Shown here in pieces: positions 9,001 to 60,476 of a DNA stretch of 64,000 nucleotides. The stretch covers positions 186,001-250,000 of the forward strand of contig NW_027252090.1 of assembly GCF_044704955.1 (NCBI RefSeq), written 5' to 3'. Each line of letters begins with the position of its first letter. Position 1 is the first letter of the stretch. Position numbers and translations under genes: made by a program. The stretch is from Pristiophorus japonicus (taxonomy: Eukaryota). The notes under the pieces were generated by a model, which was not told the origin of the DNA, ran no database searches, and was given only the letters and a program-made list of their open reading frames with translations.

Positions 9001-12000
9001 ATCCCACTGCCCCGCTCTCTCCCCATAGTCCTGTATCAATCCCTAAACTAATCCCACTGCCCCGCTCTCTACCCATAGTCCTGTATCAAACCCCAAACTA
9101 ATCACACTGCCCCGCTCTCTCCCCTTGGTCCTGTATCAAACCCCAAACTAATCCCACTGCTCCACTCTCTCCCCATAGTCCTGTATCAATCTCCAAACTA
9201 ATCCCTCTGCCCCGCTCTCTCCCCATAGTCCTGTATTAATCCCCAAACTAATCCCACTGCCCCACTCTCTCCCCTTGGTCCTGTATCAAACCCCAAACTA
9301 ATCCCACTGCCCCACTCTCTCCCCATAGTCCTGTATCAATCTCGTAATTTGTCCCACTGCCCAGCTATCTTCCCATAGTCCTGTATCAATCCCAAAACTA
9401 ATCCCACTGCCCCGCTCTCTCCCCATAGTTCTGTGTCAAACCCCAAACTAATCCCACTGCCCCGCTCTCTCCCCTTGGTCCTGTATCAAACCCCAAACTA
9501 ATCCCACTGCCCCATTCTCTCCCCATTGTCCTGTATCAATCTCCAAACTGATCCCACTGCCCCGCTCTCTCCCCATAGTCCTGTATCAATCTCCAAACAA
9601 ATCCCACTGCCCCGATCTCTCCCCATAGTGCTGTATCAAACCCCAAACTAATCGCACTGCCCCGCTCTCTCCCCATAGTCCTGTATTAATCCCCAAACTA
9701 ATCCCACTGCCTCGCTCTCTCCCCATAGCCCGGTATTAATACCCAAACTAATCCCACTGCCCCGCTCTCTCCCCATTGTCCTGTATCAATCCTCAAACTA
9801 ATCCCACTGCCCCGCTCTCTCCTCATAGTCCTGTATCAATCCCCAAACTAATCCCACTGCCCCGCTCTCTCCCCATAGTCCTGGATCAATCCCCAAACTA
9901 ATCCCACTGCCCCGCTCTCTCCCCATAATCCTGTATCAATCCCCAAACTAATCCCACGGCCCTGCTCTCTCCCCATAGTCCTGTATCAAACCCCAAACTA
10001 ATCCCACTAACCCGCTCTTTCCCCATAGTCCTGTATCAATCTCGAAACTAATCCCACTGCCCCGCTCTCTCCCCACAGTCCTGTATCAACCCCCAAACTA
10101 ATCCCACTGCCCCGCTCTCTCCCCTTGGTCCTGTATCAAACCCCAAACTAATCCCACTGCTACACTCTCTCCCCATAGTCCTGTATCAATCCCCAAACTA
10201 ATCCCACTGCCCCGCTCTCTCCCCATAGTCCTGTATCAATCCCCAAACTAATCCCACTGCCCCGCTCTCTCCCCATAGTCCTGTATCAATCCCCAAACTA
10301 ATCCCACGGCCCTGCTCTCTCCCCATAGTCCTGCATCAATCCCCAAACTAATCCCACTGCCCCGCTCTCTCCCCATAGTCCTGTATCAGTCCCTAAACTA
10401 ATCCCACTGTCCCGCTCTCTCCCCATAGTCCTGTAGCAAACCCCAAACTAATCCCACTGCACCGCTCTCTCCCCTTGGTCCTGTATCAAACCCCAAACTA
10501 ATCCCAATGCCCTACTCTCTCCCTATAGTCCTGTATCAATCCCCAAACTAATCCCACTGCCCCGCTCTCACCCCATAGTCCTGTATCAATCTCCAAACTA
10601 ATCCCACTGCCCCGATCTCTCCCCATAGTGCTGTATCCAACCCCAAACTAATCACTCTGCCCCGCTCTCTCCCCATAGTCCTGTATCAAACCCCAAACTA
10701 ATCCCACTGCCCCGTTCTCTCCCCATAGTCCTGTATCAATCCCCAAACTAATCCCACTGCCCCGCTCTCTCCCCATAGTCCTGTATCATTCCCCAAACTA
10801 ATCCCACTGCCCCGCTCTCTCCCCATAGTCCTGTATCAATCTCCAAACAAATCCCACTGCCCCGATCTCTCCCCATAGTGCTGTATCAAACCCCAAACTA
10901 ATCCCACTGCCCCGCTCTCTCCCCATAGTCCTGTATCAATCCCCAAACTAATCCCACTGCCCCGCTCTCTCCCTATAGTCCTGTATCAATCTCGAAACTA
11001 ATCCCACAGCCCCGCTCTCTCCCCATAGTCCTGTATCAATCCCTTAACTAATCCCACTGCCCCGCTCTCTCCCCATAGTCCTGTATCAAACCCCAAACTA
11101 ATCCCACTGCCCCGCTCTCTCCCCTTGGTCCTGTATCAAACCCCAAACTAATCCCACTGCCCCGCTCTCTCCCCAGAGTCCTGTATTAATCTCGAAACTT
11201 GTCCCACTGCCCAGCTCTCTTCCCATAGTCCTGTATCAATCCCTAAACTAATCCCACTGCCCCGCTCTCTCCCCATAGTCCTGTATCAATCCCTAAACTA
11301 ATCCCACTGCCCCGCTCTCTACCCATAGTCCTGTATCAAACCCCAAACTAATCACACTGCCCCGCTCTCTCCCCTTGGTCCTGTATCAAACCCCAAACTA
11401 ATCCCACTGCTCCACTCTCTCCCCATAGTCCTGTATCAATCTCCAAACTAATCCCTCTGCCCCGCTCTCTCCCCATAGTCCTGTATTAATCCCCAAACTA
11501 ATCCCACTGCCCCACTCTCTCCCCTTGGTCCTGTATCAAACCCCAAACTAATCCCACTGCCCCACTCTCTCCCCATAGTCCTGTATCAATCTCGTAATTT
11601 GTCCCACTGCCCAGCTATCTTCCCATAGTCCTGTATCAATCCCAAAACTAATCCCACTGCCCCGCTCTCTCCCCATAGTTCTGTGTCAAACCCCAAACTA
11701 ATCCCACTGCCCCGCTCTCTCCCCTTGGTCCTGTATCAAACCCCAAACTAATCCCACTGCCCCATTCTCTCCCCATTGTCCTGTATCAATCTCCAAACTG
11801 ATCCCACTGCCCCGCTCTCTCCCCATAGTCCTGTATCAATCTCCAAACAAATCCCACTGCCCCGATCTCTCCCCATAGTGCTGTATCAAACCCCAAACTA
11901 ATCGCACTGCCCCGCTCTCTCCCCATAGTCCTGTATTAATCCCCAAACTAATCCCACTGCCTCGCTCTCTCCCCATAGCCCGGTATTAATACCCAAACTA

Positions 12001-14600
12001 ATCCCACTGCCCCGCTCTCTCCCCATTGTCCTGTATCAATCCTCAAACTAATCCCACTGCCCCGCTCTCTCCTCATAGTCCTGTATCAATCCCCAAACTA
12101 ATCCCACTGCCCCGCTCTCTCCCCATAGTCCTGGATCAATCCCCAAACTAATCCCACTGCCCCGCTCTCTCCCCATAATCCTGTATCAATCCCCAAACTA
12201 ATCCCACGGCCCTGCTCTCTCCCCATAGTCCTGTATCAAACCCCAAACTAATCCCACTAACCCGCTCTTTCCCCATAGTCCTGTATCAATCTCGAAACTA
12301 ATCCCACTGCCCCGCTCTCTCCCCACAGTCCTGTATCAACCCCCAAACTAATCCCACTGCCCCGCTCTCTCCCCTTGGTCCTGTATCAAACCCCAAACTA
12401 ATCCCACTGCTACACTCTCTCCCCATAGTCCTGTATCAATCCCCAAACTAATCCCACTGCCCCGCTCTCTCCCCATAGTCCTGTATCAATCCCCAAACTA
12501 ATCCCACTGCCCCGCTCTCTCCCCATAGTCCTGTATCAATCCCCAAACTAATCCCACGGCCCTGCTCTCTCCCCATAGTCCTGCATCAATCCCCAAACTA
12601 ATCCCACTGCCCCGCTCTCTCCCCATAGTCCTGTATCAGTCCCTAAACTAATCCCACTGTCCCGCTCTCTCCCCATAGTCCTGTAGCAAACCCCAAACTA
12701 ATCCCACTGCACCGCTCTCTCCCCTTGGTCCTGTATCAAACCCCAAACTAATCCCAATGCCCTACTCTCTCCCTATAGTCCTGTATCAATCTCCAAACTA
12801 ATCCCACTGCCCCGCTCTCACCCCATAGTCCTGTATCAATCTCCAAACTAATCCCACTGCCCCGATCTCTCCCCATAGTGCTGTATCCAACCCCAAACTA
12901 ATCACTCTGCCCCGCTCTCTCCCCATAGTCCTGTATCAAACCCCAAACTAATCCCACTGCCCCGTTCTCTCCCCATAGTCCTGTATCAATCCCCAAACTA
13001 ATCCCACTGCCCCGCTCTCTCCCCATAGTCCTGTATCATTCCCCAAACTAATCCCACTGCCCCGCTCTCTCCCCATAGTCCTGTATCAATCTCCAAACAA
13101 ATCCCACTGCCCCGATCTCTCCCCATAGTGCTGTATCAAACCCCAAACTAATCCCACTGCCCCGCTCTCTCCCCATAGTCCTGTATTAATCCCCAAACGA
13201 ATCCCACTGCCACGCTCTCTCCCCATAGCCCAGTATCAATCCCCAAACTAATCCCACTGCCCCGCTCTCTCCCCATAGACCTGTATCAATCCCCAAACTA
13301 ATCCTACTGCCCCGCTCTCTCCCCATCGTCCTGTATCAATCCCCAAACTAATCCCACTGCTCCGCTCTCTCACCATAATCTTGTATCAATCCCCAAACTA
13401 ATCCCACTGCCCCGCTCTCTCCCCATAGTCCTGTATCAATCCCCAAACTAATCCCACTGCCCCGCTCTCTCCCCATAGTCCTGTATCAATCCTCAAACTA
13501 ATCCCACTGCCCCGCTCTCTCCCCATAGTCCTGTATCAATCCCCAAACTAATCCCACTGCCCCGCTCTCTCCCCATAGTCCTGTATCATTCCCCAAGGTA
13601 ATCCCACTGCCCCGCTCTCTCCCCATAGTCCTGTATCAATCTCCAAACAAATCCCACTGCCCCGATCGCTCCCCATAGTGCTGTATCAAACCCCAAACTA
13701 ATCCCACTGCCCCGCTCTCTCCCCATAGTCCTGTATTAATCCCCAAACTAATCCCACTGCCACGCTCTCTCCCCATAGCCCAGTATCAATCCCCAAACTA
13801 ATCCCACTGCCCCGCTCTCTCCCCATAGACCTGTATCAATCCCCAAACTAATCCTACTGCCCCGCTCTCTCCCCATCGTCCTGTATCAATCCCCAAACTA
13901 ATCCCACTGCCCCGCTCTCTCCCCATAGCCCTGTAAAAATCCCCAAACTAATCCCACTGCCCCGCTCTCTCCCCATCGTCCTGTATCAATCCCCAAACTA
14001 ATCCCACTGCCCCGCTCTCTCCCCATAGCCCTGTAAAAATCCCCAAACTAATCCCACTGCCCCGCTCTCTCCCCATCGTCCTGTATCAATCCCCAAACTA
14101 ATCCCACTGCCCCGCTCTCTCCCCATAGTCCTGTATCAATCCCCAAAATAATCCTACTGCCCCGCTCTCTCCCCATAGTCCTGTATCAATCCCCAAACTA
14201 ATCCCACTGCCCCGCTCTCTCCCCATCGTCCTGTATCAATCCCCAAACTAATCCCACTGCCCCGATCTCTCCCCATAGTCCTGTATCAATCCCCAAACTA
14301 ATCCCACTGCCCCGCTCTCTCCCCATAGTCCTGTATCAATCCCCAAACTAATCCCACTGCTCCGCTCTCTCAACATAATCCTGTATCAATCCCCAAACTA
14401 ATCCCACTGCCCCGCTCTCTCCCCATAGTCCTGTATCAATCCCCAAACTAATCCCACTGCCCCGATCTCTCCCCTGATAGTCCTGTATCAATCCTCAAAC
14501 TAATCCCACTGCCCCGCTCTCTCCCCATAGTCCTGTATCAATCCCCAAACTAATCCCACTGCCCCGCTCTCTCCCCATAGTCCTGTATCAATCCCCAAAC
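1..14600. repeat. 50-bp tandem satellite (~290 monomers), running off the left edge of the window
   Basis: Unit ACTAATCCCACTGCCCCGCTCTCTCCCCATAGTCCTGTATCAATCCCCAA repeats continuously; diagnostic variant monomers recur in the same order. Confidence 0.98.
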
Positions 14601-16490
14601 TCGCTCTTTCTCTGTCTCTCTCAGTCTCTCTCTCTCTTTTTCTCTTTCACTCTCTATATATCTCTATGTCTCTATCTGTTTCTAGCTCTCTCTCTCACTC
14701 GCTCTNNNNNNNNNNNNNNNNNNNNNNNNNNNNNNNNNNNNNNNNNNNNNNNNNNNNNNNNNNNNNNNNNNNNNNNNNNNNNNNNNNNNNNNNNNNNNNN
14801 NNNNNNNNNNNNNNNNNNNNNNNNNNNNNNNNNNNNNNNNNNNNNNNNNNNNNNNNNNNNNNNNNNNNNNNNNNNNNNNNNNNNNNNNNNNNNNNNNNNN
14901 NNTCGCTCCCTGTCTTTCTCTGTCTAGCTCCCTCTCGCTCTCTCTCTCCCCGTCTCTGTTTCTCTCTCGTTCTATCTTTCCCTCTCTCTGCCTCCCTCTC
15001 CCTCTTGCTCTCTCTCTCTGTATCTCTCCCTGTCTTTATCTCTGTCGTTCCCTCTCTCTTTATCAATCTCTGTCTCTCTCTGACTATCTCGCAATCGCTC
15101 TCTTTCTGTCTCCCTGTGTTTCTATCTCTCTGTCTCAATTTCTGTGTTTCTCTCTCTCTGTATTTTTTCTCTCTATCTCTCTGTCTTTGTCTCTCATTCT
15201 NNNNNNNNNNNNNNNNNNNNNNNNNNNNNNNNNNNNNNNNNNNNNNNNNNNNNNNNNNNNNNNNNNNNNNNNNNNNNNNNNNNNNNNNNNNNNNNNNNNN
15301 NNNNNNNNNNNNNNNNNNNNNNNNNNNNNTCTGCCTGTCTCCCTCTCTCTTTCTCTCTCTCTCGCTCTCTGTCTCTCTCTCGCTCTATCTAGCTGTCTCT
15401 ATCTCTCTCTATCTGTCTATCTGTCTCGCTGNNNNNNNNNNNNNNNNNNNNNNNNNNNNNNNNNNNNNNNNNNNNNNNNNNNNNNNNNNNNNNNNNNNNN
15501 NNNNNNNNNNNNNNNNNNNNNNNNNNNNNNNNNNNNNNNNNNNNNNNNNNNNNNNNNNNNNNNNNNNNNNNNNNNNNNNNNNNNNNNNNNNNNNNNNNNN
15601 NNNNNNNNNNNNNNNNNNNNNNNNTATGTCTCTGAGTTTCTCACTCTGTCTCTCTCTCCTGTCTCTTTTCATTTCTTTCTCACTCTCTGTCCCTCCCTCT
15701 GTGCCCCCTCTCTCCTGATCTCTCTCTCACTAACTCTGTCTCTCTCTCTGTCTCTCTCTCTCTCTCCGTATCTCTCTGTACCACTCTCTCGCCCTATCTC
15801 TCTCTATCCCTCTCTAACTTTGACTGTCTCTCTCTCCCTCTCGCTGAAACTCTCTGCCATTCTCACACTGTCACGCTCGCTCTCTCTCTCTCTATCTCTC
15901 TCTATCTCTTTCACTCGCTCTGTCACTGTCTCTTTCTCTCTGTCTCTCTCTCTCTCTGTCTCTCTGTCTGTCTCTCTCTCACTCTCTCTCTCTTTCTTTC
16001 ACAGACTCTCTCTGTCTGTCTCAACCTCTCTCTCTTTGTCTCTCTCTGTCTCACTCTCTCACCCTATCTCTCTCTATCCCTCCCTCTCTCTCTGACTCTC
16101 TCTGACTCTCTCTGTCTCTCTCCATCTCCCTGTCTGTCTCTCACTCTCTTGTCACTNNNNNNNNNNNNNNNNNNNNNNNNNNNNNNNNNNNNNNNNNNNN
16201 NNNNNNNNNNNNNNNNNNNNNNNNNNNNNNNNNNNNNNNNNNNNNNNNNNNNNNNNNNNNNNNNNNNNNNNNNNNNNNNNNNNNNNNNNNNNNNNNNNNN
16301 NNNNNNNNNNNNNNNNNNNNNNNNNNNNNNNNNNNNNNNNNTCTCTCTCTCTGTCATTCTCTCCCTGTCTCTGTTTCTCTCTGTCTGTATGTTTATCTCT
16401 TTCTCTGTATATCTCTCCCTCTCTTTCTCTGTCTGTATGTCAATCTCTTTATCTGTATATCTCTCCCTCTCTCTCTCTCTGTCTCTCTGA
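14601..16490. repeat. (CT)-rich low-complexity tract with N runs
   Basis: CT/CTGT microsatellite-like sequence; overlapping ORFs are Ser/Leu or Glu/Arg low-complexity artefacts. Confidence 0.95.
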
Positions 16491-16637
16491 AGCTCTCCCA
16501 GAACCACAGTGACAATGCACACACCGATCTTTAGTCATCCATTTTACATTTGTTAATGGTCGCCATTTGATGTTAACACTGGGAGATTGATTACAGAGAC
16601 CGACTACTTTCGAATTTAACGTTAGCTGCTTAAAGGT

Positions 16638-18240
16638 GTACCTGCCCTGGGAGTGTTTGATGGGACAGTGTAGAGGGAGATTTACTCTGTATCTAACCCC
16701 CTGTACCTGCCCTGGGAGTGTTTCATGGGACAGTGCAGAGGGAGCTTTACTCTGTATCTAACCCCCTGTACCTGCCCTGGGAGTGTTTGATGGGACAGTG
16801 TAGAGGGAGCTTTACTCTGTATCTAACACCCTGTAACTGCCCTGGGAGTGTTTGATGGGACAGTGTAGAGGGAGCTTTACTCTGTATCTTACCCCCTGAA
16901 CCAGCCCTGGGAGTGTTTGATGGGACAGTGTAGAGGAAGCTTTACTCTGTATCTAACCCCCTGTACCTGCCCTGGGAGTGTTTGATGGGACAGTGTAGAG
17001 AGAGCTTTATTCTGTATCTAACTCCCTGTACCTGCCCTGGGAGTGTTTGATGGGACAGTGTAGAGGGAGCTTTACTCTGTATCTAACCCCCGGTACCTGC
17101 CCTGGGAGTGTTTGATGGGACAGTTTAGAGGGAGATTCACTCTGTATCTAACCCCCTGTACCTGCCCTGGGAGTGTTTGATGGGACAGTGTAGAGAGAGC
17201 TTTATTCTGTATCTAACTCCCTGTACCTGCCCTGGGAGTGTTTGATGGGACAGTGTAGAGGGAGGTTTATTTTGTATCTAACATGTGTTGTACCTGTCCT
17301 GGGAGAGTTTGATGGGACAGTGTAGAGGGAGCTTTACACTGTATCTAACCCCATGTATCTGCCCTGGGAGTGTTTGATAGGACAGTGTAGAGGGAGCTTT
17401 ACTCTGTATCTAACCCCATGTACCTGCACTGGGAGTATTTGATGGAACAGTGTAGAGGGAGTTTTACCCTGTATCAAACCCCCTGTACCAGCCCTGGGAG
17501 TGTCTGATGGGACAGTGTAGAGGGAACTTAATCTGTATCTCACCCCGTGTACCTGCCCTGGGAGTGTTTGATGGGACAGTGTAGCGGGAGCTTTACTCTG
17601 TATCTAACCCCCTGTACCTGCCCTGGGAGTGTTTGATGGGACAGTGCAGAGGGAGCTTTACTCTGTATCTAACCCCGTGCTGCACCTGCCCTGGGAGTGT
17701 TTGATGGGACAGTGTAGAGGGACCTTTACTCTGTATCTAACCCCCTGTACCTGACCTGGGAGTGTTTGATGGGACAGTGTAGAGCGAGCTTTACTCTGTA
17801 TCTAACACCCTGTACCTGACCTGGGATTGTTTGATGGGACAGTGTAAAGGGAGCTTTACTCTGTATGTAACCCCCTGAACCTGCCCTGGGAGTGTTTGAT
17901 GGGACAGTGCAGAGGGAGCTTTACTCTGTATCTAAACCCGTGCTGTACCTGCCCTGGGAGTGTTTGCTGGGACAGTGTAGAGGGAGCTTTACTCTGTATC
18001 TAACCCCCTGTACCTGCCCTGGGAGTGTTTGATGGGACAGTGTAGAGGGAGCTTTACTCTGTATCGAACCACCTGTACCTGTCCTGGGAGTGTTTGATGG
18101 GACAGTGTAGAGGGAGCTTTACTCTGTATCTAACCCCCTGTACCTGCCCTGGGAGTGTTTGATGGGACAGTGTAGAGGGAGCTTTATTCTGTATCTAACC
18201 CCCTGTACCTGCCCTGGGAGTGTTTGATGGGACAGTGTAG
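16638..18240 (+). repeat. 65-bp minisatellite array (~25 units; some 68-bp variants)
   Basis: Unit GTACCTGCCCTGGGAGTGTTTGATGGGACAGTGTAGAGGGAGCTTTACTCTGTATCTAACCCCCT; first two starts at 16638 and 16703. Confidence 0.97.
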
Positions 18241-19844
18241 AGAGCGAGAGTGAGAGAGGAACAGAAAGAGAGAGAGACTGACAGAGAGACAGGGAGACTG
18301 AAAGATAGAGCGAGAGAGAGGGACTCTGTATCTAGCCCCCTGTACCTGCCTGGGGAGGTTTGATGGGACTGTGTGGTGGGAGATTAAATGCCCAACTCTC
18401 TCTGTCCCTCTCAGTTTCTCTCTATCAGTTTCTCTCTCTCTGTCTGTTCCTCTCTCTCTCTCGCTGTCTCTTTCAGGGTCACTGTCTCCCTCCCTCTTTG
18501 TATCTCTGTCCCTTTCTCTCTCTCGCTCTCTCTTTCAGTCTCACTGTGTCTCTCCCTCTCTGTCCCTTTCTCTCTCTCGCTCTCTGTCTGTCTCTCTGTC
18601 TCCCTCTCTCCGTCTTGCTCCCTCACTCTCTCCCTCGCTCCCAATTTCTATCCATCTATCTCTCTTTCACTTTTTCCTCTGTCTCTGCTGCTGTCCATTT
18701 CTGATCTCTCTATTTCTTTCCCTTTTCTCCCAACGCGCTCTCTCTATCCCTAATTCTCTCACTGCTTCTTCCTGTACACCTCTCTTTCTCTCTCTCCCTG
18801 TCTCTCATTCCCATTTTGATGTGTCCTTGATTGAAAAGTACCCTGACATATTGCAGCCTGACTGTTTAAACCCACAGCAAAAATCACATTTCTGGGACAT
18901 TTATGATTTGCTAACCATCCAATTGTGGCTTGGAATGTGTGGGTTAAATCTCGTTTCTCCATCTGAAAACTGTGAGTGTTTCAGATTGAGCAGTATATGG
19001 GATCAAAGGCTGATTCAGACAATGCTGTATTGTGGAACGGTGTGATATCTTCGCAGGGCAGGACATGGGGAACCAAGATTTATTGGTTTGAATAAGGTGT
19101 AAATTCGATTGTGTCACCCCCTCACAGATACACAGGATTGAAGCTGTTTACCATCAATGCCCTGAAAGAATGAAATGGTTCAACAAGGTGTGACTGACTT
19201 CAAACTCTTCAAACACATGATGACCCGTAGACTGGGACCAATACACAAAGCCCCGAGCCCAGGCAGGCAAACCAGATTTGTTCACAGATCCCATTTTGGT
19301 TTAGATTTCAAAAATATACTTTATTCCTCGAAAATGTTCACAATACATTGGAAAATAGTTCAGTAAATTGCGTTCAGCAATTCCATACAATTCATTTGGA
19401 TGCTGACAGCATTTCCATACAATATACGAGCGTACATTTAATTTCAAGGTGGAGTTTAGTCCAATCTGTAAATGCTGTTCCATGTAGCACTGTGTAAATT
19501 AGGGTATTACATGGAGCAGGTAAGGACAGGTTTACATTACATTCCAGGATACATTTCAATCCCAATCACCAATCACGTTACAGGTAGCACTGTGTCGATG
19601 GAAGCAGGACACGCAACGGATGAGAATACATTGAGATGTCTTTACAATTTACTAAACAGTGCAGAAACTGACATTATACATGACACAACACAGGTGTGTT
19701 TCAGTACATTGGGCTCGATGTATACAAGCAGATTAACAAGTACAGGCCGAGGGAGGTCTGATTCCATCCCCTGGCGATGTGACATTCTGTCAAACGTGTT
19801 CGACATTCTGCTCAGGGAACAGTCTGTTAGATAATCTCACTCTG

Positions 19845-20465
19845 CACTGTCCCATCAAACACTCCCAGGGCAGGTACAGGGGGTTAGATACAGAGTAAAG
19901 CTCCCTCTACACTGTCCCATCAAACACTCCCAGGGCAGGTACAGGGGGTTAGATACAGAGTAAAGCTCCCTCTACATTGTCCCATCAAACACTCCCAGGT
20001 CAGGTACAGGGGGTTAGATACAGAGTAAAGCTCCCTCTACACTGTCCTATCAAATACTCCCAGGGCAGGTACAGGGGGTTAGATACGGAGTAAAGCTCCC
20101 TCTACACTGTCCCATCAAACACTCCCAGGGCAGGTACAGCATTGGGTTAGATAAAGAGTAAAGCTCCCTCTACACTGTCCCATCAAACACTCCCAGGGCA
20201 GGTACAGGGGGGTACATACAGAGTAAAGCTCCCTTTACACTGTCCCATCAAACACTCCCAGGTCAGGTACAGGGGGTTAGATACAGAGTAAAGCTCCCTC
20301 TACACTGTCCCATGAAACACTCCCAGGTCAGGTACAGGGGGTTAGATACAGAGTAAAGCTCCCTCTTCACTGTCCCATCAAACACTCCCAGGGCAGGTAC
20401 AGGGGGTTAGATACAGAGTAAAGCTCCCTCTACACTGTCCCATCAAACACTCCCAGGGCAGGTAC
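19845..20465 (-). repeat. 65-bp minisatellite array in inverted orientation (~9-10 units)
   Basis: Reverse complement of the same unit (ACTGTCCCATCAAACACTCCCAGGGCAGGTACAGGGGGTTAGATACAGAGTAAAGCTCCCTCTAC). Confidence 0.97.
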
Positions 20466-20610
20466 ACCTTTAAGCAGCTAACGTTAAAATAGAGAGTAGT
20501 CGGTCTCTGTTATCAATCTCCCAGTGTTAACATAAAATGGTGACCATTAACAAATGTAAAATGGATGTGAAGATCGGTGTGTGCATTGTCACTGTGGTAC
20601 TGGGAGAGCT

Positions 20611-24311: not shown

Positions 24312-25185
24312 TCATCTTTTAATTAATTTCAGAATCAGTGTGAAGGGATATTTCCCTACATTCTTCAACTGCTGTCTGAACTTAGTCTGGGTCACGGCAT
24401 AAATTGCCATGTTTGTGCAGAAACTCAGCAGCTGCAGCATGAATCCAATGTCCATTACATAAAAAGGTATATATACAGAATCATACCCCAAATAGTACAT
24501 CTGGATCCATATAGAATGCACCATAAACACCGCCCACAACAGGATGAAATTGCCGGAGATAACAAACAGTAAAATGATGGAATTCCTGCGGCTGGCCATC
24601 TCAGGGTCACTGGGACACTCCCCACTGCTGGCACCCAGGAGTTGCCTGCGGGCTCTGCTGGCCAATATAATATGTCTGGCGGTGACAGTATTGAGCAGCA
24701 GAATCAGAGCAAATGGGACACATGGGGTAAGAATATAATGAAGGAATGTGATTGCTGTCCAGACCGGTGAATACAGAACATCATACGTTGTATAGCAAAA
24801 CCAGGGTATGTTTGAAAGCGTATAGAAATTTGTCAACATAAAATACCAGAAAATGTTCTTCAACCCGCTCAGTAAAGTCACGGTTCCCAGAACCACAGCC
24901 GCCGTTCTCTTGGTGCAATATTTAGTTTTCAGATTCTGGCAACAAATGGCCACAAAGCGATCAAAGGTGAAACTGACAGTGAACCAGACAGAACAGTCTG
25001 TGGCTGCGTGAAGTAAGACGGCGTGAATATTACACACGTGGAAGGACCGCACGAAATGTAACTCAGTATCAGGTCGAGGATAATGACCAGGACATCCGTC
25101 ACTGCCATGGCCACCAGATAGCGAGTGACACATCTGGAGAGACCGCACTTTCCACGAGGCAAGATCACAATCGTCAGGATGTTAA
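24312..25185 (-). pseudogene. GPR139/GPR142-like class A GPCR, exon 2 (end of TM1 to TM7), frameshifted near 25061
   Basis: Acceptor ...TGACAG|TTAAC at 25186/25185. First frame VNILTIVILPRGKCGLSRCVTRYLVAMAVTDVLVIILDLIL, then a frame switch to VCNIHAVLLHAATDCSVWFTVSFTFDRFVAIC (DRF motif)...CTNMAIYAVTQTKFR (NPxxY-like)...stop at 24312. Confidence 0.9.
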
Positions 25186-25903: not shown

Positions 25904-27240
25904 ATAGAAACATAGAAAATATAGAAAATAGTTGCAGGAGCAGGCCATTCGGCCCTTAAAGCCTGAACCGCCATTCAATGAATTCATGGTTGAACAAGCA
26001 ACTTCAGTACCACTTTCCTGCTTTCTCGCCATACCCCTTGATCCCCCTGTTAGTAAGGTCTATATTTAACTCCTTTTTGGATATATTTAGTAAATTGGCC
26101 TCAACAACTTTCTGTGGTAGAGAATTCCACAGGTTCACCACTCTCTGGGTGAAGAGGTTTCTCCTCATCTCAGTCCTAAATGGCTTACCCCTTATCGTTA
26201 GACTGTGACCCCTGGTTCTGGACTTTCCCAACATTGGGAACATTCTTGCTGCATCTAACCTGTCTAAACCCGTCAGAATTTTAAACATTTCTATGAGATC
26301 CCCTCTCTTTCTTCTGACTCCATTGAATACAAGCCCTGTTGATCCAGTCTTTCTTGATATGTCAGTCCCGCCATCCCGGGAATCAGTCTAGTGAACCTTT
26401 GCTGCACTCCCTCAATAGCAGGAATGTCCTTCCTCAAGTTAGGAGACCAAAACTGTACACAATACTCGAGGTGTGGCCTCACCAAGGCCCTGTACAATTG
26501 TAGCAATACCTCCCTGCCCCTTTCCTCAAATCTCCTTGCAATGAAGGCCAACATGCCATTTGCTTCCTTAACCGCCTGCTGTTCCTGCATGCCAACCTTC
26601 AATGACTGATGTACCATGACACCCAGGCCTCGTTGCACCTCCCCTTTTCCTAATCTGTCACCATTCAGATAATAGTCTGTCTCTCTGTTTTTATCACCAA
26701 AGTGGATAACCTCACATTTATCCACATTATACTTCATCTGCCATGCATTTGCCCGCTCACCTAACCTATCCAAGTCACTCTGCAGCCTCATAGCATCCTC
26801 CTCGCAGTTCACACGGCCACCGAACTTAGTGTCATCCGCAAATTTGGAGATACTACATTTAATCCCCTCGTCTAAATCATTAATGTACAGTGTAAACAGC
26901 TGGGACGACAGCACAGATCCACTAGTCGCTGCCTGCCATTCTGAAAAGTAGCCATTTACTCCTACTCTTTGCTTCCTGTCTGACAACCAGTTCTCAATCC
27001 ATGTCAGCACACTACCCCCAATCCGATGTGCTTTAACTTTGCACATTAATCTCTTGAGCGGGACCTTGTCGAAAGCCTTCTGAAAGTCCAAATATAGCAC
27101 ATCAACTGGTTCTCCCTTGTCCACTATACTGGAAACAACCTCAAAAAATTCCAAAAGATTTGTCAACCATGATTTCCCTTTCACAAATCCATGCTGACTT
27201 GGACCTATCATGGCACCTCATTCCAAATGCGCTGCGATGA
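25904..27240 (-). mobile_element. CR1 LINE, 5'-truncated, with RT domain and 3' end
   Basis: QHGFVKGKS, YLDFQKAFDKV, FADDTK, RPHLEYCVQFWSP; (AGAAACAT)-type tail at 25904. Confidence 0.96.
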
Positions 27241-30649: not shown

Positions 30650-31000
30650 TGTGACGAAGACTTCCAAAGATTTAAGTGACATACTCAGTAATACAGTGAA
30701 ATATAGATTAGAGTTATATTGCTGGATATTGAGACTTACGAGGAACACCAACAACACCAAAGAGTGTGGAATAAATTAAAAGAACACTCGTACAATTAAC
30801 GTATGCACAGTTAATAGCTGGATGCAGAGATGTCCCGGGAACAACAACTGAAGCAAAGATGAGAAAGCAATTTACAAGTCTAGTAATACAGCGAAACATG
30901 GTTTGCAGAGTTAATAGTTGGATACAGAGACTACCAGGAAAAAAAAATGCAGCAAGATGGTGGGAGTAAAATATGAGATAAGTAATACATTGAACCATGG
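30650..31000 (-). other. Tandem diverged ~95-100 bp copies of the exon-1 TM1/donor segment
   Basis: Units end FFFPG|GTAGTC (30935), VVVPG|GGACAT (~30836) and VVGVP C|GTAAGTC (30740), each followed by TCTC..ATCCA(A/G)C..ATTAACT-like sequence; a partial further copy lies near 30650-30710. Confidence 0.7.
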
Positions 31001-31026
31001 TTACTGGAATAACGAGATAGACTTAC

Positions 31027-31186
31027 CAGCAAAACCAACAACAGCAAGGACGGGATAGTAAATGTATTGAATAATACGAAATGCAAAACGCATTCGCAAT
31101 ACGAATGGTAGTTCCTCATAATGTGCAACAAGATAGTTAAAATACAAGATGAAACTCTTGCCATTTGTTGTAACATTCCAATCCAT
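31027..31186 (-). pseudogene. GPR139-like GPCR exon 1 (N-terminus and TM1)
   Basis: ATG at 31186; MDWNVTT...IIQYIYYPVLAVVGFA; phase-1 donor G|GTAAGT at 31027/31026 joins exon 2 in frame (G+TT AAC = V-N). Confidence 0.85.
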
Positions 31187-31782
31187 TTTTTTCAGATTCT
31201 GATTATTGTTGTAACATTCGAATCTACTGTTCTCAGATTCCGACTCGCTCTCTATGGAGCAGTGCGATGATCGCTGTTCGTGCCAGAGGTAATGCTCTCA
31301 ACTGTGACTATGGGGCAACACATTGAAAGGAGTGCCTTATTAATATGAGCGAGAATCACTCCAGTGACACAATTCTGTAAATAGAGACTTATATTAATTA
31401 CAGTCACTGAACAACCTGCTTCTGTAAACCCGTGGAGACTGATATTAATTACAGTCCTGAACAAACATTTTCAATTAACCCCTTCAATCCAACACTTTAT
31501 GTACCACAATAAGTTAGATCTCCTGGAGTAGTTTTGATCACCTGGATAAGTCGGGGCGGAATGTTGCCAGATACTTTTCCCGAAATTGTCCTCGATTTTA
31601 AATAGTTTTTTGCCTCTGCCGGGAGATCACATGGCTCCGGTTGGTTTGGAGTGTAGAATATTTCAGTTTAAGGTGTGTCACAGTTGTGTGGGGCAGTCTG
31701 CTTGTGCTTGGTGATCTTTACGTTTCCTCCATTGTTAATGGTTCAAAAGATTACATGTAAGCTTCAGGGCTGCTGACCGATG

Positions 31783-32562
31783 GGACATCAGTCATTGAAG
31801 GTTGGCATGCAGGTACAGCAGGCGGTTAAGAAAGCAAATGGCATGTTGGCCTTCATAGCGAGGGGATTTGAGTACAGGGGCAGGGAGGTGTTGCTGCAGT
31901 TATACAGGGCCTTGGTGAGGCCACACCTGGAGTACTGTGTACAGTTTTGGTCTCCTAACCTGACGAAGGACATTCTTGCTATTGAGGGCGTGCAACGAAG
32001 GTTCACCAGACTGATTGCCTGGATGGCGGGACTGACCTATCAAGAAAGACTGGATCAACTGGGCTTGTATTCACTGGAGTTCAGAAGAATGAGAGGGGAC
32101 CTCAGAGAAATGTTTAAAATTCTGACGGGGTTAGACAGGTTAGATGCAGGAAGAATGTTCCCAATGTTGGGGAAGTCCAGAACCAGGGGACACAGTCTAA
32201 GGATAAGGGTTAAGCCATTTAGGACCGAGATGAGGAGTAAAGTCTTCACCCAGAGGGTGGTGAACCTGTGGAATGTTGTACCACAGAATGTTGTTGAGGC
32301 CAATTCACTAAATATATTCAAAAAGGAGTTAGATGAATCCTTACTACGAGGGGAATCAAGGGGTATGGTGAGAAAGCAGGAATGGGGTACTGAAGTTGCA
32401 TGTTCAGCCATGAACTCATTGAATGGTGGTGCAGGCTAGAAGGGCCGAATGGCCTACTCCTGCACGTATCTTCTATGTTTCTATGTGAGTCTTTGTCGGC
32501 CGTTGCGGACACGATGGGCCGGAAATGGCCTCCTGTGCTGTAAATTTCTATGTTTCTATGTT
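31783..32562 (+). mobile_element. CR1 LINE 3' fragment, followed by a second short CR1-type 3' end
   Basis: 219-aa ORF2 C-terminal ORF; two (TTCTATGT)n tails at ~32470 and ~32546. Confidence 0.93.
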
Positions 32563-37594: not shown

Positions 37595-38740
37595 TGTACA
37601 GACTGATACAAAATATTTGTTCAGTGTTTTTGCATTCTCCATATTCCCCATTACTAATTCACCGGCTTGTCCTCTTAGGCACCAACATTTACTTTAGCCA
37701 TTCTTTTCCTTTTCATGTACATATTGAAAACTCTTGCTATCTGAGTTTTATAGATCGTGCTAGTTTACTTTCACAGTCTAACTTCCCTTTCTTCATCATT
37801 TTCAGTCGTTCTTTGCTGGCTTTTCAAAGATTCCCAGGCTTCTGTCCTTCCACTAGTTTTGGCCACTTTGTATGCCCCTGTTTTTAACAGGATACCATCC
37901 TTTATTTCTTTCGTTAGCCACGGATCGCTATCCTTTCTCTTAAACCTTTTCCTCCTCACTGGAATATATTTTTCTTGGAGTTGTGAAATATCTCCTTAAA
38001 TATAGACCACTGTTCATCAATCGTCCTAGAATTTAACTATATTCCCAGTCCACTTTGACCAATTTTGTCCTCATATCTTCATTGTCTATTTTATTTAATC
38101 TTAGTACGCTGGCTTGAGATCCAACTTTCTCACCCTCTATCTGAATTAGAATTTCAATCATGTGATGATCACTCATTCCAAGGGGATCCTTTACAAGGAG
38201 ATTGTTTGTTGACCCAGATCTAAGATAACCTGCCCCCTGGTTGGATCCGTTCTATACTGCTCAAGGAACCCTTCCCATATACACTCTGTGAACTCCTCCT
38301 CAAGGCAACCTGATCAATTTCATTTGTCCAAAGAATATGGAGGTTAAAATCACCCATGATTATTGTTGTTCCCATTTTACAAGCCCCCACTATTTCCTGC
38401 TTTATGTTCCGATCAACAGAGTTGCTACTGTTGGGGGGCCTATAGACTATGCCCACCTGTGACTTTTTCCCCTTATTGTTCCTTATCTCCAGCCAAACTC
38501 TTTCAACATCCTGATCGTTTGAGCCAGTATCGTTTCTTACTATTGCAGTGATTCCATCCTTCATCAATAGAGCTACCTCACCTCCGTTTCCTTTCTGTCT
38601 GTCCTTCAGGATTGTCAAGTACCCCTGAATATTTAATTCCCAGTCCTGGTCGCCTTGCAACCACTTCTCTGTAATGGCTATCAGATCATACCCATTTTCA
38701 TCTATTTTTGCAGTCAACTCATCTATTTTATTACAAATGC
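37595..38740 (-). mobile_element. CR1 ORF2 5' fragment (AP endonuclease and linker)
   Basis: YDLIAITEKWL, GEVALL, VYRPPNS, IMGDFN and PWLTKEIK motifs. Confidence 0.9.
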
Positions 38741-38879
38741 TTTACAAATGTTGTATTCCGCCCAGCAACAAACCCAGGACGCGAAGGTTGGAAAATACCC
38801 AGACTTACAGCGATGCCGGGAGATCCACAGGCGACAATTCCAGCAAGAATATCGGGAACATCCTCACATCTCCCACAAT

Positions 38880-39004
38880 TGTGTCCTGGTCACACCGGGT
38901 CTGAGCAACGCTCCCAACAATAAGGTCCTGATCATCCCGGGTCTGAGCGGGGCTCCTCACAATCAGGTCTTGATCATCCCGGGTCTGAGCCACCCTCCGC
39001 ACAA
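38880..39004. repeat. Three tandem 42-bp repeats
   Basis: GGTCCTGATCATCCCGGGTCTGAGC.....CTCC..ACAAT x3; translates as VLIIPGLSxxPHN. Confidence 0.85.
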
Positions 39005-41950
39005 TATAAATGCGTATAAGGTGGCCAAGGTTAGTGGGAAACTAGAGAATTGGGAAAATTTTAAGCAAAAGCAAAGAATGACTAAAAAAGTAATAAAGAA
39101 ATGGAAGATATATTATGAAGGGAAACTTGTGCAAAACATAAAAACAGATAGTAAAAGCTTTTACAGATATGCAAAACTGAAAAGAGTGACTAAAGTAAAT
39201 GTTGTTCCCTTAGAAGATGAAAAGGGGGATTTAATAATGGGAAATGTGGAAATGCCTGAGATCTTAAACAATTATTTTGCTTCCGTCTTCACAGTGGAAG
39301 ACACAAAAACCATGCCAAAAATTGCTGGTCATAGGAATTTGGGAAGGGAGGACCTTGAGATGATCACTATCATGAGGGAGGTAGTGCTGGGCAGACTAAT
39401 GGGACTCAAGTTAGACAAGTCCCCTAGTCCTGATGAAATGCATCCTAGGGTATTAAAAGTGATGGTGGAAGATATAGCAGCTGCATTTGTTATAATCCAC
39501 CAAAATTCTCTGGACTCTGGGGAGGTACCAGCAGATTGGAGAGCAGCTAATGTAACGCCTCTGTTTAAAAAAGGGGGCAGGCAAAAGGCAGGTAATTGTA
39601 GGCCGGTTAGTTTATCATCTGTAGTGGGGAAAATGCTTGAAACTATCATTAAGGAAGAAATAGCGGGACATCTGGATAGGAATAGTGCAATCAAGCAGAT
39701 GCAGCATGGATTCATGAAGGGGAAATCATGTTTAACTAATTTACTGGAATTCTTTGAGGATATAACGAGCATGGTGGATAGAGGTGTACCGATGGATGTG
39801 GTGTATTTGGATTTCCAAAAGGCATTCGATAAGGTGCCACACAAAAGGTTACTGCAGAAGATAAAGGTCCGTGGAGTCAGAGGAAATGTATTAGCATGGA
39901 TAGAGAATTGGCTGGCGAACAGAAAGCAGAGAGTCGGGATAAATGGGTCCTTTTGCGGTTGGAAATCAGTGGTTAGTGGTGTGCCACAGGGATCGGTGCT
40001 GGGACCACAACTGTTTCCAATATACGTAGATGACCTAGAAGAGGGGGCAGAGTGTAGTGCAACAAAATTTGCAGATGACACTAAGCTTAGTGGGAAAGCG
40101 GGTTGTGTAGAGGACTCAGAGAGGCTTCAAGGAGATTTGGATAGGTTAAGCGAATGGGCTAAGGTTTCGCAGATGGAATACAATGTCGGAAAGTATGAGG
40201 TCATCCACCTTGGGAAAAAAAACAGTAAAAGGGAATATTATTTGAATGGGGAGAAATTACAACATGCTATGGTGCAGAGGGACCTGGGGATCCTTGTGCA
40301 TGAAACTCTTTTTGGAGTTTACCTGTAAAACAAAAACATTAATCGGTGCCACCTGCCCTGGATGACACACCAGACATTTACAAGGCCCTCTTTTTTTTTT
40401 TCCTTTTTTTTTTTTTATGTGCACTACAATAACATTTTCCTTTTTCCAGTGCCCCCTATAAAAGGGGAGGGGGACACTAAAAGCACCGGCAATTAAAACA
40501 AATTAAACTTTAAAACGTAAAATCAAATTAAAATTTGGTTGCCGGGCGTGATGATGCACTCTCGTCCCTCCGGTGCCCACCTCTCGCGGAAGGCCGCGAG
40601 CGTACCGGTGGACACTGCGTGCTCCATCTCCAAGGACACCCTGGACTGGATGTAAGAGCGGAAGAGAGGCAGGCAGTCAGGTTGAACGACCCCCTCGACC
40701 GCCCGCTGCCTGGACCGGCTGATGGCACCCTTGGCCGTGCCCAGGAGCAGTCCTACGAGGAGGCCTTCGGACCTACCCGCTCCCCTCCGCACAGGGTGCC
40801 CAAAGATCAGGAGAGTGGGAATGAAGTGCAGCCAGAATTTCAGGAGCAGCCCCTTCATATAATGGAACAGGGGCTGCAACCTCGTGCACTCAATAAAAAC
40901 ATGGAACACGGTCTCCTCCAGACCGCAGAAATTGCAGGCGGCCTGGGAGTCCGTGAACCGGCTTAAAAATCTGTTGCACGGCACTGCTCCGTGCACCACC
41001 CTCCAGGCCAAGTCCCCGATGAATAGTGGGAGGACCCCTGCGTAGAGTGCCCTCCATCGGGGACCCCCGCCTCCTCCGGACGGCAAGATGGTATGCCATG
41101 GCGTGTCCGGACGGCAGGCGAGGATGGCAAAGTTGAGAGTGTGCAGGAGCAGCCCGTACAAGAAACCCCTCCGCGCCGAACTGAAAGGCACGGAGGGGAT
41201 TTCCCCGAGGCGCCTCAAGTTGGGAGGCGCCGGGCCCCGTCCCAAAAGTTTAGTTTGCAGGTGCAGCAGGTAATCAGGAAGGCAAATGGAATGTTGGCCT
41301 TCATTGCAAAAGGGATAGAGTACAAAAGCAGGGAGGTCCTGCTGCAACTGTAAAAGGTATTGGTAAGGCCGCACCTGGAGTACTGCGTGCAGTTTTGGTC
41401 ACCTTACTTAAGGAAGGATACACTAGCTGTGGAAGGGGTACAGGGACGATTCACTCGGCTGATTCGAGAAAAGAGGGGGTTACCTTATGATGATAGATTG
41501 AGTAGACTGAGTCTTTACTCCTTGGAGTTCAGAAGGATGAGGGGTGATCTTTTAGACATATTTCAAATCAGGAAATGGACAGACAAGATCGAGACAGAGA
41601 GGTTGTTTCCATTGTCGGGGGAGACTAGAACTCGGGGGCACAGCCTCAAAATACGGAGGAGCCAAATTAAAACCGAGTTGAGAAGGAATTTCTTCTCCCA
41701 GAGGGTTGTGAATCTCTGGAATTATCTGCCCATGGAAGCAGTTGAGGCTGGCTCATTGAATATTTTCAAGTCAAAGATAGATAGATTTTTAAGCAATAAG
41801 GGAATTAAGGGTTACGGGGCGAGCGCAGGTAATTGGAGCTGAGTCCACGACCAGATCAGCCATGATCTTATTGAATGGCGGAGCAGGCTCGAGGGGCTAG
41901 ATGGCCTAATCCTGTTCCTAATTCTTATGTTCTTATGTTCTTATGTTCTT
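39005..41950 (+). mobile_element. Relatively young CR1 LINE (linker, RT and 3' end), interrupted at 40304/41240
   Basis: About 430 open codons with KSPSPD, WRAANVTPLFKKG, QHGF, DFQKAFDKV, GVPQGSVLGP and FADD; resumes at 41240; (TTCTTATG)n tail. Confidence 0.96.
40305..41239 (-). mobile_element. Tx1/L1-clade non-LTR retrotransposon, 5'-truncated, nested antisense in CR1
   Basis: CCHC zinc knuckle CNFCGLEETVFHVFIEC preceded by DLAWRVVHGAV; stop at 40523, then ~220-nt 3' UTR; CR1 sequence is contiguous across the junctions (CATGAA|TCCCAAAAG). Confidence 0.88.
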
Positions 41951-43379: not shown

Positions 43380-46300
43380 GCTCTGGGTTAGCTTGTGTGT
43401 GGGGGGTCTCGCTTAGGTTTTGTGGGGGTCTCGGTTAGGTTGTGTGTGTGAGTGGGTCTCGGTTAAATTGTGTGTGTGGGGAGGGTCTCGGTTAAATTGT
43501 GTGGGGGTGTATCGGTCAGGTTATGTGTGGTGGGGCTCAGGTTATGTTGTGAAGGTGGGGGGGTTATCGGTTAGGTTGTGTGGGGGGTCTCTCGGTTAGG
43601 TTGTGCTTGTAGCGGGGGGGGGGTCTCGGTTAGGCTATGTGTGTCGAGGGTCTCGGTTAGGTTATGTCTGGGGGGGTGTCACGGTTATGTTGCGTGTAGG
43701 GGGGGACACGATTAGGTTGTGTATGTGGGGGCACTCCGTTAGGTTGTTTGGGGGAGTCTCGGTTAGGTTGTGTGTGTGGAAGATCTCAATTAGTTTGTTT
43801 GTGGGCGGGGTCTCGGTTAGGTTGTGTGTGAGGGGGTTTCTCGGTTAGGTTGTGTGTGGGGGGGTTACGGTTAGGTTGTGTGTGAGGGGGTTTCTCGGTT
43901 AGGTTGTGTGTGGGGGGGGTCTCGGTTAGGTTGTGTGTGGGCGGGGTCACGGTTAGGTTGTGTGTGGGGGGTGGTTCGGTTCAGTTGTGTGTGTGGGGTG
44001 GTCTCGGTTAGGTTGTGTGTGGGGGAGTCTCAGTTCGGTTGTGTGTGGGGGGGGGTCTCGGTTAGGTTGTGTGTGGGGGGTCACGGTTAGGTTGTGTGTG
44101 GGGGGTTTCGGTTAGGTTGTGTGTGTGGGGTTATCTCGGTTAGGTTGTGTGTGAGGGGTCACGGTTAGGTTGTGTGTGGGGTTTTCGGTTAGGTTGTGTG
44201 TGTGGGATTATCTCGGTTAGGTTGTGTGTGGGGGGTTTCGGTTAGGTTGTGTGTGTGGGGTTATCTCGGTTAGGTTGTGTGTGGGGGGTCACGGTTAGGT
44301 TGTGTGTGTGGGGGGGTGCTCGGTTAGGTTGTGTGTGTGGGGGGTCACGGTTAGGTTGTGTGTGGGGGGGTCACGGTTAGGTTGTGTGTGTGGGGGGTTT
44401 CGGTTAGGTTGTGTGTGTGGGGGGGGGGTCACGGTTAGGTTGTGTGTGTGGGGTTATCTCGGTTAGGTTGTGTGTGGGGTTATCTCGGTTAGGTTGTGTG
44501 TGTGTGGGGTTATCTCGGTTAGGTTGTGTGTGGGGTTATCTCGGTTAGGTTGTGTGTGGGGGGTCTCGGTTAGGTTGTGTGTGGGGTTATCTCGGTTAGG
44601 TTGTGTGTGTGGGGGGGTCTCGGTTAGGTTGTGGGTGTGGGTGGTCTCGGTTAGGTTGTGTGTGTGGGGGGTCACGGTTAGGTTGTGTGTGTGGGGGGTC
44701 TCGGTTAGGTTGTGTGTGTGGGTGGTCTCGGTTAGGTTGTGTGTGTGGGTGGTCTCATGTTAGGTTGTGTGTGTGGGGGGTCACGGTTAGGTAGTGTGTA
44801 TGGGTGGTCTCGGTTAGGTTGTGTGTGTGGGGGTCACGGTTAGGTTGTGAGTGGGGGGGGATCTCGGTTAGGTTGTGTGTGTGTGGGGGGGTCACGGTTA
44901 GGTTGTGTGTGGGGTGGTCACGGTTAGGTTGTGTGTGGGGGGGTCACGGTTAGGTTGTGTGTGGGGTGGTCACGGTTAGGTTGTGTGTGGGGGGGTCACG
45001 GTTAGGTTGTGAGTGGGGGGGGATCTCGGTTAGGTTGTGTGGGGTGGGGGTCTCGGTTAGGTTGTGTGGGGGTGGTCTCGGTTAGGTTGTGTGGAGGGGG
45101 GTCTCGGTTAGGTTGTGTGGGTGAGGGTCTCGGTTAGGTTGTGTGGGGGGGTCACGGTTAGGTTGTGTGGAGGGGGGTCTCGGTTAGGTTGTGTGGGTGG
45201 GGGTCTCGGTTAGGTTGTGTGGAGGGGGGTCTCGGTTAGGATGTGTGTGGGGGGGTGTCTCGGTTAGGTTGTGTGTGGGGGGGTCTCGGTTAGGTTGTGT
45301 GTGGAGGGGGGTCTCGGTTAGGTTGTGTGGAGGGGGGTCTCTGTTAGGTTGTGTGTGGGGGGGTCTCGGTTAGGTTGTGTGTGTGGGGGGTCTTGGTTAG
45401 GTTGTGTGTGTGGGGGGTCTCGGTTAGGTTGTGTTTGGGGGGGTCTCGGTTAGGTTGTGTGTGCGGGGGGGTTCTCGGTTAGGTTGTGTGTGTGGGGGGT
45501 CTCGGTTAGGTTGTGTTTGGGGGGGTCTCGGTTAGGTTGTGTGTGGGGGGGTTCTCGGTTAGGTTGTGTGTGTGGGGGGGTTACGGTTAGGTTGTGTGTG
45601 TGGGGGGGTCTCGGTTAGGTTGTGTGTGGGGGGGGTCTCGGTTAGGTTGTGTGTGGGGGGGTCTCGGTTAGGTTGTGTGTGGGGGGGTCTCGGTTAGGTT
45701 GTGTGTGGGGGGGGTCTCGGTTAGGTTGTGTGTGTGGGGGGGGTCACGGTTAGGTTGTGTGTGTGGGGGGGGTCACGGTTAGGTTGTGTGTGGGGGGTCT
45801 CGGTTAGGTTGTGTGTGGGGGGGGTCACGGTTAGGTTGTGTGTGGTTGGGGGGTCACGGTTAGATTGTGTGGGGGGGGGGTCACGGTTAGGTTGTGTGTG
45901 GTTGGGGGGTCACAGTTAGGTTGTGTGTGGTTGGGGGGTCACGGTTAGGTTGTGTGTGGTTGGGGGGTCACAGTTAGGTTGTGTGTGGTTGGGGGGTCAC
46001 GGTTAGGTTGTGTGTGGTTGGGGGGTCACGGTTAGATTGTGTGGGGGGGGGTCTCGGTTAGATTGTGTGGGGAGGGGTCACGGTTAGGTTGTGTGTGTGG
46101 GGGGTCTCGGTTAGGTTGTGTGTGTGGGGGGGTTTCGGTTAGGTTGTGTGTGTGGCTGGTGGTCTCGGTTAGGTTGTGTGGGGGTGGTCTCGGTTAGGTT
46201 GTGTGTGTGGGGGGTTTCGGTTAGGTTGTGTGTGTGGGAGGTCTCGGTTAGGTTGTGTGGGGAGGGGGTCTCGGTTATTTTGTGTGTGTGTGGTGGGGGG

Positions 46301-46440
46301 TCTCGTATAGTTTATGTGTGGGGGGGGTCCTCGGTTAGGTTGTGTGTGGGGTCTCTGTTATGTTGTGTGTTTGTGGGGGTGTCTCGGTTCGGTTGTGTGT
46401 GTGTGGGGTTTCGGTTATGTTGTGTGTGGGGGGTGGGCTC
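43380..46440. repeat. G/T-rich ~26-30 bp variable satellite (GGGGGTCTCGGTTAGGTTGTGTGTG)
   Basis: Conserved CGGTTAGGTTGTGT core with variable (GT)n and G-run lengths; degenerate at both edges. Confidence 0.96.
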
Positions 46441-56926: not shown

Positions 56927-57064
56927 CTGTAAAAGAGGGACAAAAGATTGAAGCAGGGATTTAGTGCTTTGGGGCAATTATCTCAGGGTTTTTATCAATG
57001 AAACGTTCAGAGATTTGGCAAACCGCTTCAGTCAGCTCGAAGCAAATGCACTGAATCTTCTCAC

Positions 57065-57192
57065 CTTCACCAGAGTGACGGCAGCGCTGTAGAACATGCT
57101 CAGGAAGAACAGGATGATGAATGTGGAAGCGGTTGTCCAGATGTTGCCGCTCTGGCCCTCGTAGTCTTCATCCCAGATGTGATCTGAGGAAT
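57065..57192 (-). CDS. IGHM: IgM heavy chain TM1 exon
   Basis: CCGCAG|(D)[42 protein letters not shown]|GTGAGA; CART motif with WTTASTF and YS; 128 nt, phase 1 to phase 0. Confidence 0.96.
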
Positions 57193-58500: not shown

Positions 58501-58599
58501 GCACTCACTTTTGCACGCATTCTTCCCCGCTCTGTGTAAATGTTTTCAGCGTGAGACGCCAGGTGACGTCAGGCGACGGAATGCAACAATTCAACGATG

Positions 58600-60448: not shown

Positions 60449-60476
60449 TAAGAACTGAAATGCAATCGAGAGATTC

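Follow-up and report, generated by a model that had tools for sequence, protein, structure and literature searches.

A two-exon receptor gene and the array behind its first exon

The window analysed here, a stretch of 64,000 nucleotides from Pristiophorus japonicus, carries a two-exon shark receptor gene followed, directly behind its first exon, by an array of tandem copies of the exon-1/intron-1 junction. The gene and all features of the array lie on the minus strand (Table 1). Exon 2 matches the 7tm_1 profile at 38.8 bits, against a curated cut-off of 30.5, which places the gene among the class A G-protein-coupled receptors (GPCRs). Because exon 2 contains a private, frameshifting deletion of 28 nt, seen in none of the other 98 loci of our close set, the window gene reads as a pseudogene in this assembly. 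A 21-nt tandem repeat (window positions 31165-31231) lies where exon 1 begins, and in database relatives the N-terminal repeats of the NLRTIDWNVTT type, with N-x-T sequons, vary in number; such repeats would be a second, repeat-driven source of N-terminal variation.

Table 1. The receptor gene and the array behind exon 1, in window coordinates; donor positions are those of the first intron base, with the slash marking the exon/intron boundary.
Feature	Position	Strand	Evidence and remarks
TATA-like box ATTAATAAGG upstream of exon 1, putative promoter element	31335..31344	-	Distant paralogues have the same motif ahead of their exon 1
Coding exon 1, 53 codons + 1 nt: N-terminus and first part of TM1	31027..31186	-	Matches database models; donor CTG/GTAAGT at 31026
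Unit 1, 92 nt: intron start, exon-1-frame stop, ATG 30998, copy 1 of exon-1 end	30935..31026	-	Weak donor CTG/GTAGTC at 30934
Unit 2, 99 nt: ATG 30899, copy 2	30836..30934	-	Donor dead, CCG/GGACAT (GG) at 30835
Unit 3, 96 nt here (99 in paralogues): copy 3	30740..30835	-	Acceptor-like CAG ending 30818; donor CTC/GTAAGT at 30739
Partial fourth unit, without donor	30674..30739	-	Shuffle-tested alignment
Open 94-codon frame spanning the three copies	30714..30998	-	ORF reading; ATG 30998, stop 30716-30714
Exon 2, end of TM1 to TM7	24312..25185	-	Pfam PF00001 7tm_1, E 9.8e-10; frameshifted by 28-nt deletion at 25064

Aligned with each other, the three copies reach z scores of 15.0, 10.6 and 7.9, and each aligned with the exon-1 junction reaches 4.9, 3.1 and 7.8 (500 shuffles each), with identities across the array units of about 60-72%. 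The partial fourth unit, running from 30739 to about 30674, scores higher against the unit before copy 2's donor than all 2000 shuffles. These alignments bear out an earlier note on this DNA, which had described three diverged copies of the exon-1 end and a partial fourth; the units measure 92-99 nt, with donor-to-donor spacings of 92, 99 and 96 nt. Tandem Repeats Finder, run on the window, did not report the array. The donors that the same note had called weakened, destroyed and perfect correspond to GTAGTC, GGACAT and GTAAGT, and the 94-codon frame that it had read from the ATG at 30998 is present, closed by the stop listed in Table 1.

Joined in silico from 30740 to exon 2 (25185), the cassette frame continues in frame as VGVP-LNILTIVIL, in agreement with the join proposed earlier. 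The frame of exon 1 is out of phase with that of the cassettes and stops 8 codons past its own donor. A Pfam search of the cassette frame gave no match above the cut-off. The proposal that each copy encodes a TM1-like stretch holds for the first part of TM1, the remainder of which is supplied by exon 2. The most family-typical TM1 end, which had been ascribed to the distal copy, instead belongs to exon 1, whose own IYYPVLAVVG is typical: among the 199 database models examined out of 213 (14 were skipped), a canonical YYP-type exon-1 end precedes exon 2 in 179. A doubled TM1 end occurs in none of these 199 models and a cassette-like start in one. A search for the cassette frame within longer proteins found it in none of 29 candidates, which is weak evidence.

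The copies among paralogous genes

The array was compared across a close set of 99 loci, including that of the window (L125 and L126 were left out as too distant), and a distant set of 29 paralogues fetched by exon 1 alone out of about 50 distant matches listed. All 29 distant paralogues carry one or two junction copies, and each of 9 further distant loci, picked by donor patterns, has at least one extra junction; among the sampled genes with a canonical exon 1, none was found without any copy. Copy number across the paralogues is one, two or three, and two copies are deleted in 8 close loci, 2 of which are intact genes. When pairs of perfect donors separated by 78-100 nt were sought by pattern, 19 matches were returned, fewer than in the control, one of them a family member. 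Across species, where the comparison was made on protein models, XP_067833419.1, predicted automatically in another shark, has a cassette-like peptide at its N-terminus, which suggests that the unit exists in that shark too.

When 30 units taken from 11 genes are placed on a tree, all cassettes group together, separate from every exon-1 junction (UFBoot 84), which speaks for a single old duplication after which units were gained and lost. The same tree leads us to reject concerted evolution of exon 1 with its own copies. Between distant clades, the cassettes differ by 0.13-0.37 and the fourfold sites of exon 2 by 0.22-0.29, p-distances that are near saturation (shuffled control 0.36). Since the two divergences are similar on this nearly saturated measure, persistence of the cassettes needs no selection.

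Three distant loci or groups show further variations. In one distant clade (L194-L218), the intron contains another partial copy of the junction, some 850-1500 nt from its start. At L209 (G000:C133:1936734-1938068), a single exon 2 is preceded by two tandem copies of promoter, exon 1 and cassette, 99.8% identical and repeating every 1182 nt, and both exon-1 donors read GTCAGT; this tandem would be either a very recent duplication or an assembly artefact. At L126 (G000:C4:160489955-160490339), the frame of exon 1 continues over 96 nt into its first cassette, whose end is a perfect CAG/GTAAGT donor, and no exon 2 was found in the 10 kb examined.

The donors of exon 1 and of the distal copy differ in how well they are kept. 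The exon-1 donor retains its GT in 98 of the 99 close loci, a level of retention shared by 3.7% of 323 intronic GTs; on the tree this amounts to a single change and is not exceptional (P 0.23). The distal donor retains its GT in 84 of the 99 loci and is dead in 15, below the intronic mean of 0.90 (n=323), having been lost three times on the tree, once in a clade with 6 intact genes. All 40 close loci in which exon 2 is intact have GTAAGT as their first donor, and 34 of them have the distal GT. The same difference is seen in 37 mostly distant loci, with GT[AG]AG at 34 exon-1 donors versus 20 terminal-cassette donors.

The long, 87-codon frame leading to the distal donor is open in 22 of the 99 close loci and broken in 77, and in most close loci it is a 98-nt unit that breaks it. 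The ATG of copy 2 is absent in 67 of 98 close loci, 58 of which read AAA at that position. Across the 37 mostly distant loci, the length from unit 0 to the last donor is a multiple of three in 12, a chance-like proportion. With exon 2 intact, the long frame is open in 14 of 40 close loci, compared with 7 of 47 where exon 2 is broken, a difference (p 0.043) that is confounded with clade. All three of frame, ATG and donor are retained in 8 of the 40. Of the features whose conservation in paralogues the earlier note had proposed to check, the cassettes are present, whereas the long frame is mostly closed and two copies are missing from the 8 deletion loci.

Parts of the array do remain open more often. 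Copy 1 keeps its ATG, frame and weak GT in 27 of the 40 loci with an intact exon 2, and copy 3 is open in 88 of 90 loci. Copies 2 and 3 together are open in 82 of 90 (0.91), a value reached by about 3% of 190 overlapping intron windows, or in 82 of 98 when the deletion loci are counted. Openness was compared with neutral simulation in the window's 29-gene subclade; results for the whole set were dropped, since a long outgroup branch makes the neutral expectation too low there. Within the subclade, the long frame is open in 21 genes against 14.2 expected (P 0.18) and copies 2 and 3 in 27 of 29 (P 0.057). Exon 1 is open in 28 against 15.5 (P 0.007), and exon 2 in 20 against 1.6, a number reached in 0 of 60 neutral runs.

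For substitution tests, trees were built from 80 of the 99 loci, the remainder having no exon 2 in the stretch or at least 30 gaps in the cassettes. The first codon-test set had been picked in part by similarity to the cassette peptide, and 20 of the 23 missing loci were added to it through the exon-1 search. A dN/dS of 0.53 (p 0.0006) for the TM parts of the cassettes, obtained with GY94/F1x4 on 72 loci, was rejected, as MG94 on 80 loci with two independent trees and an intron-rate simulation gave 0.93-0.94; a composition effect in T-rich sequence probably lies behind the lower value. Over the 87 cassette codons, total changes come to 0.99 of the neutral expectation, and dN/dS is 0.92-0.96, not significantly different from neutrality. 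The cassettes change at about the intron rate: 1.27 changes per site, against a mean of 1.45, falls in the lower part of the intron windows, a comparison of low power.

Across the close loci, exon 2 has a dN/dS of 0.81 (p 0.001-0.003) and exon 1 one of 0.95-1.0. Since the genuine exon 1 is itself close to 1, the codon test has low power and cannot separate a real TM1 exon from a relic. The terminal cassettes of distant genes give values of 0.61-0.75, which at p 0.07-0.17 are not significant, again with low power.

Probable decaying exon ends and alternative readings

The array is real and family-wide and is probably a relic: the copies are most likely non-functional leftovers of one old duplication, carried along with the gene and slowly decaying. 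A stretch of about 100 nt, comprising the last ~65 nt of exon 1 and ~33 nt of intron, would have undergone a single duplication ahead of the radiation of the subfamily; copies would then have been gained and lost by unequal exchange among units, while whole-gene and segmental duplications multiplied the block. The open frame of the window needs no other source, because the 99-nt units derive from coding sequence. The working mRNA would join the first donor to exon 2. Use of the distal donor in the window gene would place a stop upstream of the junction and would likely be unproductive, as a stop upstream of a splice junction is likely to lead to mRNA decay. Of the two inferences drawn in the earlier note, neutral duplication relics, offered there as the fallback, fit best, and alternative first exons or extra membrane segments mostly fail, given the 8 of 40 genes in which frame, ATG and donor survive together.

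In this respect, the array appears to work like the pseudogenic duplicated exons surveyed in mammals (PMC2718932), which are likewise copies of a parent exon within the same gene near its 5' end and disabled in many lineages; their near-neutral substitution may be shared by the array, for which the tests above have low power. The copies are homologous to the parent exon of their own gene, and they are often disabled among the close loci, while the window gene retains the open frame and two GTs. Unlike the mammalian exons, the array repeats only the 3' part of the exon together with the intron start, head to tail at intervals of about 100 nt, was inherited by a whole receptor subfamily, and still has an open frame in the window. 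A second parallel is offered by splice sites arising from intragenic tandem duplication (PMC3265369), where a duplication spanning a splice motif likewise yields candidate donors and acceptors in one step. In that case the new intron became functional, whereas the new sites of the array are candidate sites. As a relic, the array matters little beyond being a subfamily-defining marker and a trap for gene prediction.

If the copies were used, they would offer a compact means of varying the N-terminus and TM1 of a receptor family, or of rescuing them. We consider it unlikely, with some room for doubt, that the subfamily's spare exon-1 ends are in use, as a replacement first exon in one distant clade and possibly as an optional in-frame exon for the start of TM1; if they are, a 100-nt tandem unit would be providing exon turnover and N-terminal variation within hundreds of GPCR genes. 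The clearest hint of a spare junction standing in for exon 1 comes from this distant clade (L221-L226 and L250-L279, on G000 C23, C29, C30, C1684, C2056 and others; at least 40 matches), in which the first junction appears to have been cut by a dispersed repeat, presumably a CR1-type tail: the sequence just upstream of it matches the repeat in unrelated loci. In 31 loci of the 40 matches listed, the GT of the first junction is present in 8 and that of the distal junction in 21. At the distal junction, about 180 nt downstream, an ATG is present in 31 of 31, in frame in 28 and followed by an open frame in 25, often with a perfect donor. Of the 25 loci with a match (26 were given), 18 have an intact exon 2, against a neutral mean of 0.14 and a maximum of 6 in 200 runs.

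These observations, together with the cassette-like start of XP_067833419.1, are what would be expected if the copies were a reserve, idle in most genes and taking over as first coding exon once the original is damaged, a reading that is compatible with the array of the window being a relic. Against it, a usable distal exon is not enriched among genes with an intact exon 2 (12 of 18, versus 4 of 7 with a broken exon 2; paired by hand), and dN/dS in the clade is 2.8 for the distal exon and 0.94 for exon 2. In the unit tree, the distal junction groups beside the cassettes (support 75) with a long branch of its own, and it may be an independent copy. Furthermore, an exon further upstream could serve these genes instead, and the database models are automatic. 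On this evidence, we regard such a reserve as quite unlikely.

A different use would make copy 3 an optional internal exon of phase 1/phase 1, 81 nt long (78 nt here, 30817-30740), placed between exons 1 and 2 with the CAG of the duplicated intron start as its acceptor, which would swap the first part of TM1 and lengthen the N-terminus. Acceptor, frame and donor are present together in 69 of 99 loci and in 32 of the 40 with an intact exon 2; the acceptor AG shows no change on the 80-leaf tree, and copy 3 itself is, as described above, nearly always open. However, 9% of 385 intronic AGs are equally unchanged (P 0.09), the donor has suffered the three losses noted above, including that in a clade of intact genes, and there is no association with the state of exon 2 (p 0.16). 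In single-copy genes such an exon is impossible, as the intron would be about 18 nt long, and it is included in none of the 199 database models. The idea also arose after the fact, and we consider it very unlikely.

Clustered protocadherins and UGT1 are known variable-first-exon clusters. The clusters of chelicerate sDscam (PMC4835542) and Drosophila Gr39a (PMC2204066) resemble the array in having tandem 5' units that can be joined to one constant exon in the same phase. The units of such clusters are described there as complete exons under purifying selection, each with its own promoter in the case of sDscam. In the array, by contrast, the units are about 100 nt apart, and the ~30 nt from a donor to the following ATG position leave no room for separate promoters, whereas ~300 bp is reported to suffice as a Dscam cassette promoter (PMC4835542). 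A single TATA-like box lies upstream of exon 1. Start, long frame and donor are kept together in 8 of the 40 intact genes, the donor of copy 2 is dead, and the distal donor is lost in 6 of 40. On these points the array departs from a variable-first-exon cluster.

These differences bear directly on the proposal that the copies supply alternative first exons, or a read-through extension adding membrane segments, to a constant TM2-7 body. The open frame and in-frame join of the window would allow it, and a short exon running from ATG to donor is formally possible at copy 1 in the 27 close loci already mentioned; among the 37 mostly distant loci, the last copy could form such an exon in 12, and the exon-1 frame reads through in 6. 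However, the exon-1 frame stops ahead of the cassettes, the long frame is confined to one subclade, the start of copy 2 has mostly become AAA and the donor of copy 1 is weak (GTAGTC). As to extra membrane segments, ahead of the last copy a single 19-residue stretch reaches a hydropathy of 1.8, compared with 2.4 for the real TM1. We find this proposal harder still to credit. Least credible of all is that the extra donors code for nothing and adjust expression, either as decoys or by diverting transcripts into unproductive splicing and decay: every distant gene examined retains at least one copy, a stop lies upstream of any distal junction, and a regulatory role for decaying exons has been proposed (PMC2718932), but distal donors are no better kept than ordinary intronic GTs, and low neutral divergence predicts persistence anyway.

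The receptor family and its surroundings

Shark and ray models related to the window gene are labelled 'probable G-protein coupled receptor 139', a name assigned automatically to models by the database; 2490 proteins match at E<=1e-30, the best being 91-93% identical. The best match in the PDB is likewise GPR139 (7vug, 9m42), which is weak (E 3e-8), and a PDB search at E 1e-10 returned no match. Both GPR139 and the host family are class A seven-transmembrane receptors, but GPR139 is a conserved brain receptor, whereas the host family comprises hundreds of fast-turnover genes, and the likeness between them is that of the label and the weak match.

The genome contains about 100 close paralogues, and the family total is well over a hundred copies. 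The family is thus of interest in itself, as GPCRs in cartilaginous fishes are described as relatively few in PMC8455134. Exon 2 is broken in 47 of the 87 close loci in which it is in view, with a dN/dS of about 0.8, and the close paralogues appear to undergo fast birth and death. We found no paper on the family or the array, including in passages of PMC8455134, PMC11979771 and PMC12208981; supplements to shark genome papers may list it.

On the same strand of the window, 26-30 kb upstream of the receptor, lie immunoglobulin heavy-chain constant exons (57032-61754), which are of the C1-set and come with a tail of the secretory type and what is likely a membrane exon. Near-identical copies of the constant exon number 14, and for 10 of them a close paralogue of the receptor follows 20-31 kb downstream in the same orientation; this pairing makes it likely that the nearest receptor copies were multiplied within a larger segment containing both. 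The apparently co-amplified immunoglobulin copies lie on G000 contigs C3347, C3807, C90, C1937, C158, C687, C1198 and C2057, apart from the main group of related exons, which is on C23.

Much of the remaining window is repetitive. Long minisatellites occupy 1-14601 (period 50 nt), 16637-18242 (65), 19836-20466 (65), 43394-46433 (27), 54826-56135 (67) and 58605-60043 (53). Broken retroelement reading frames are found at 26004-27217, 31777-32439, 38220-40328 and 50347-54291, which from their translations we take to be pieces of LINE-like reverse transcriptases and of an LTR-type element with protease-, reverse transcriptase- and integrase-like parts.
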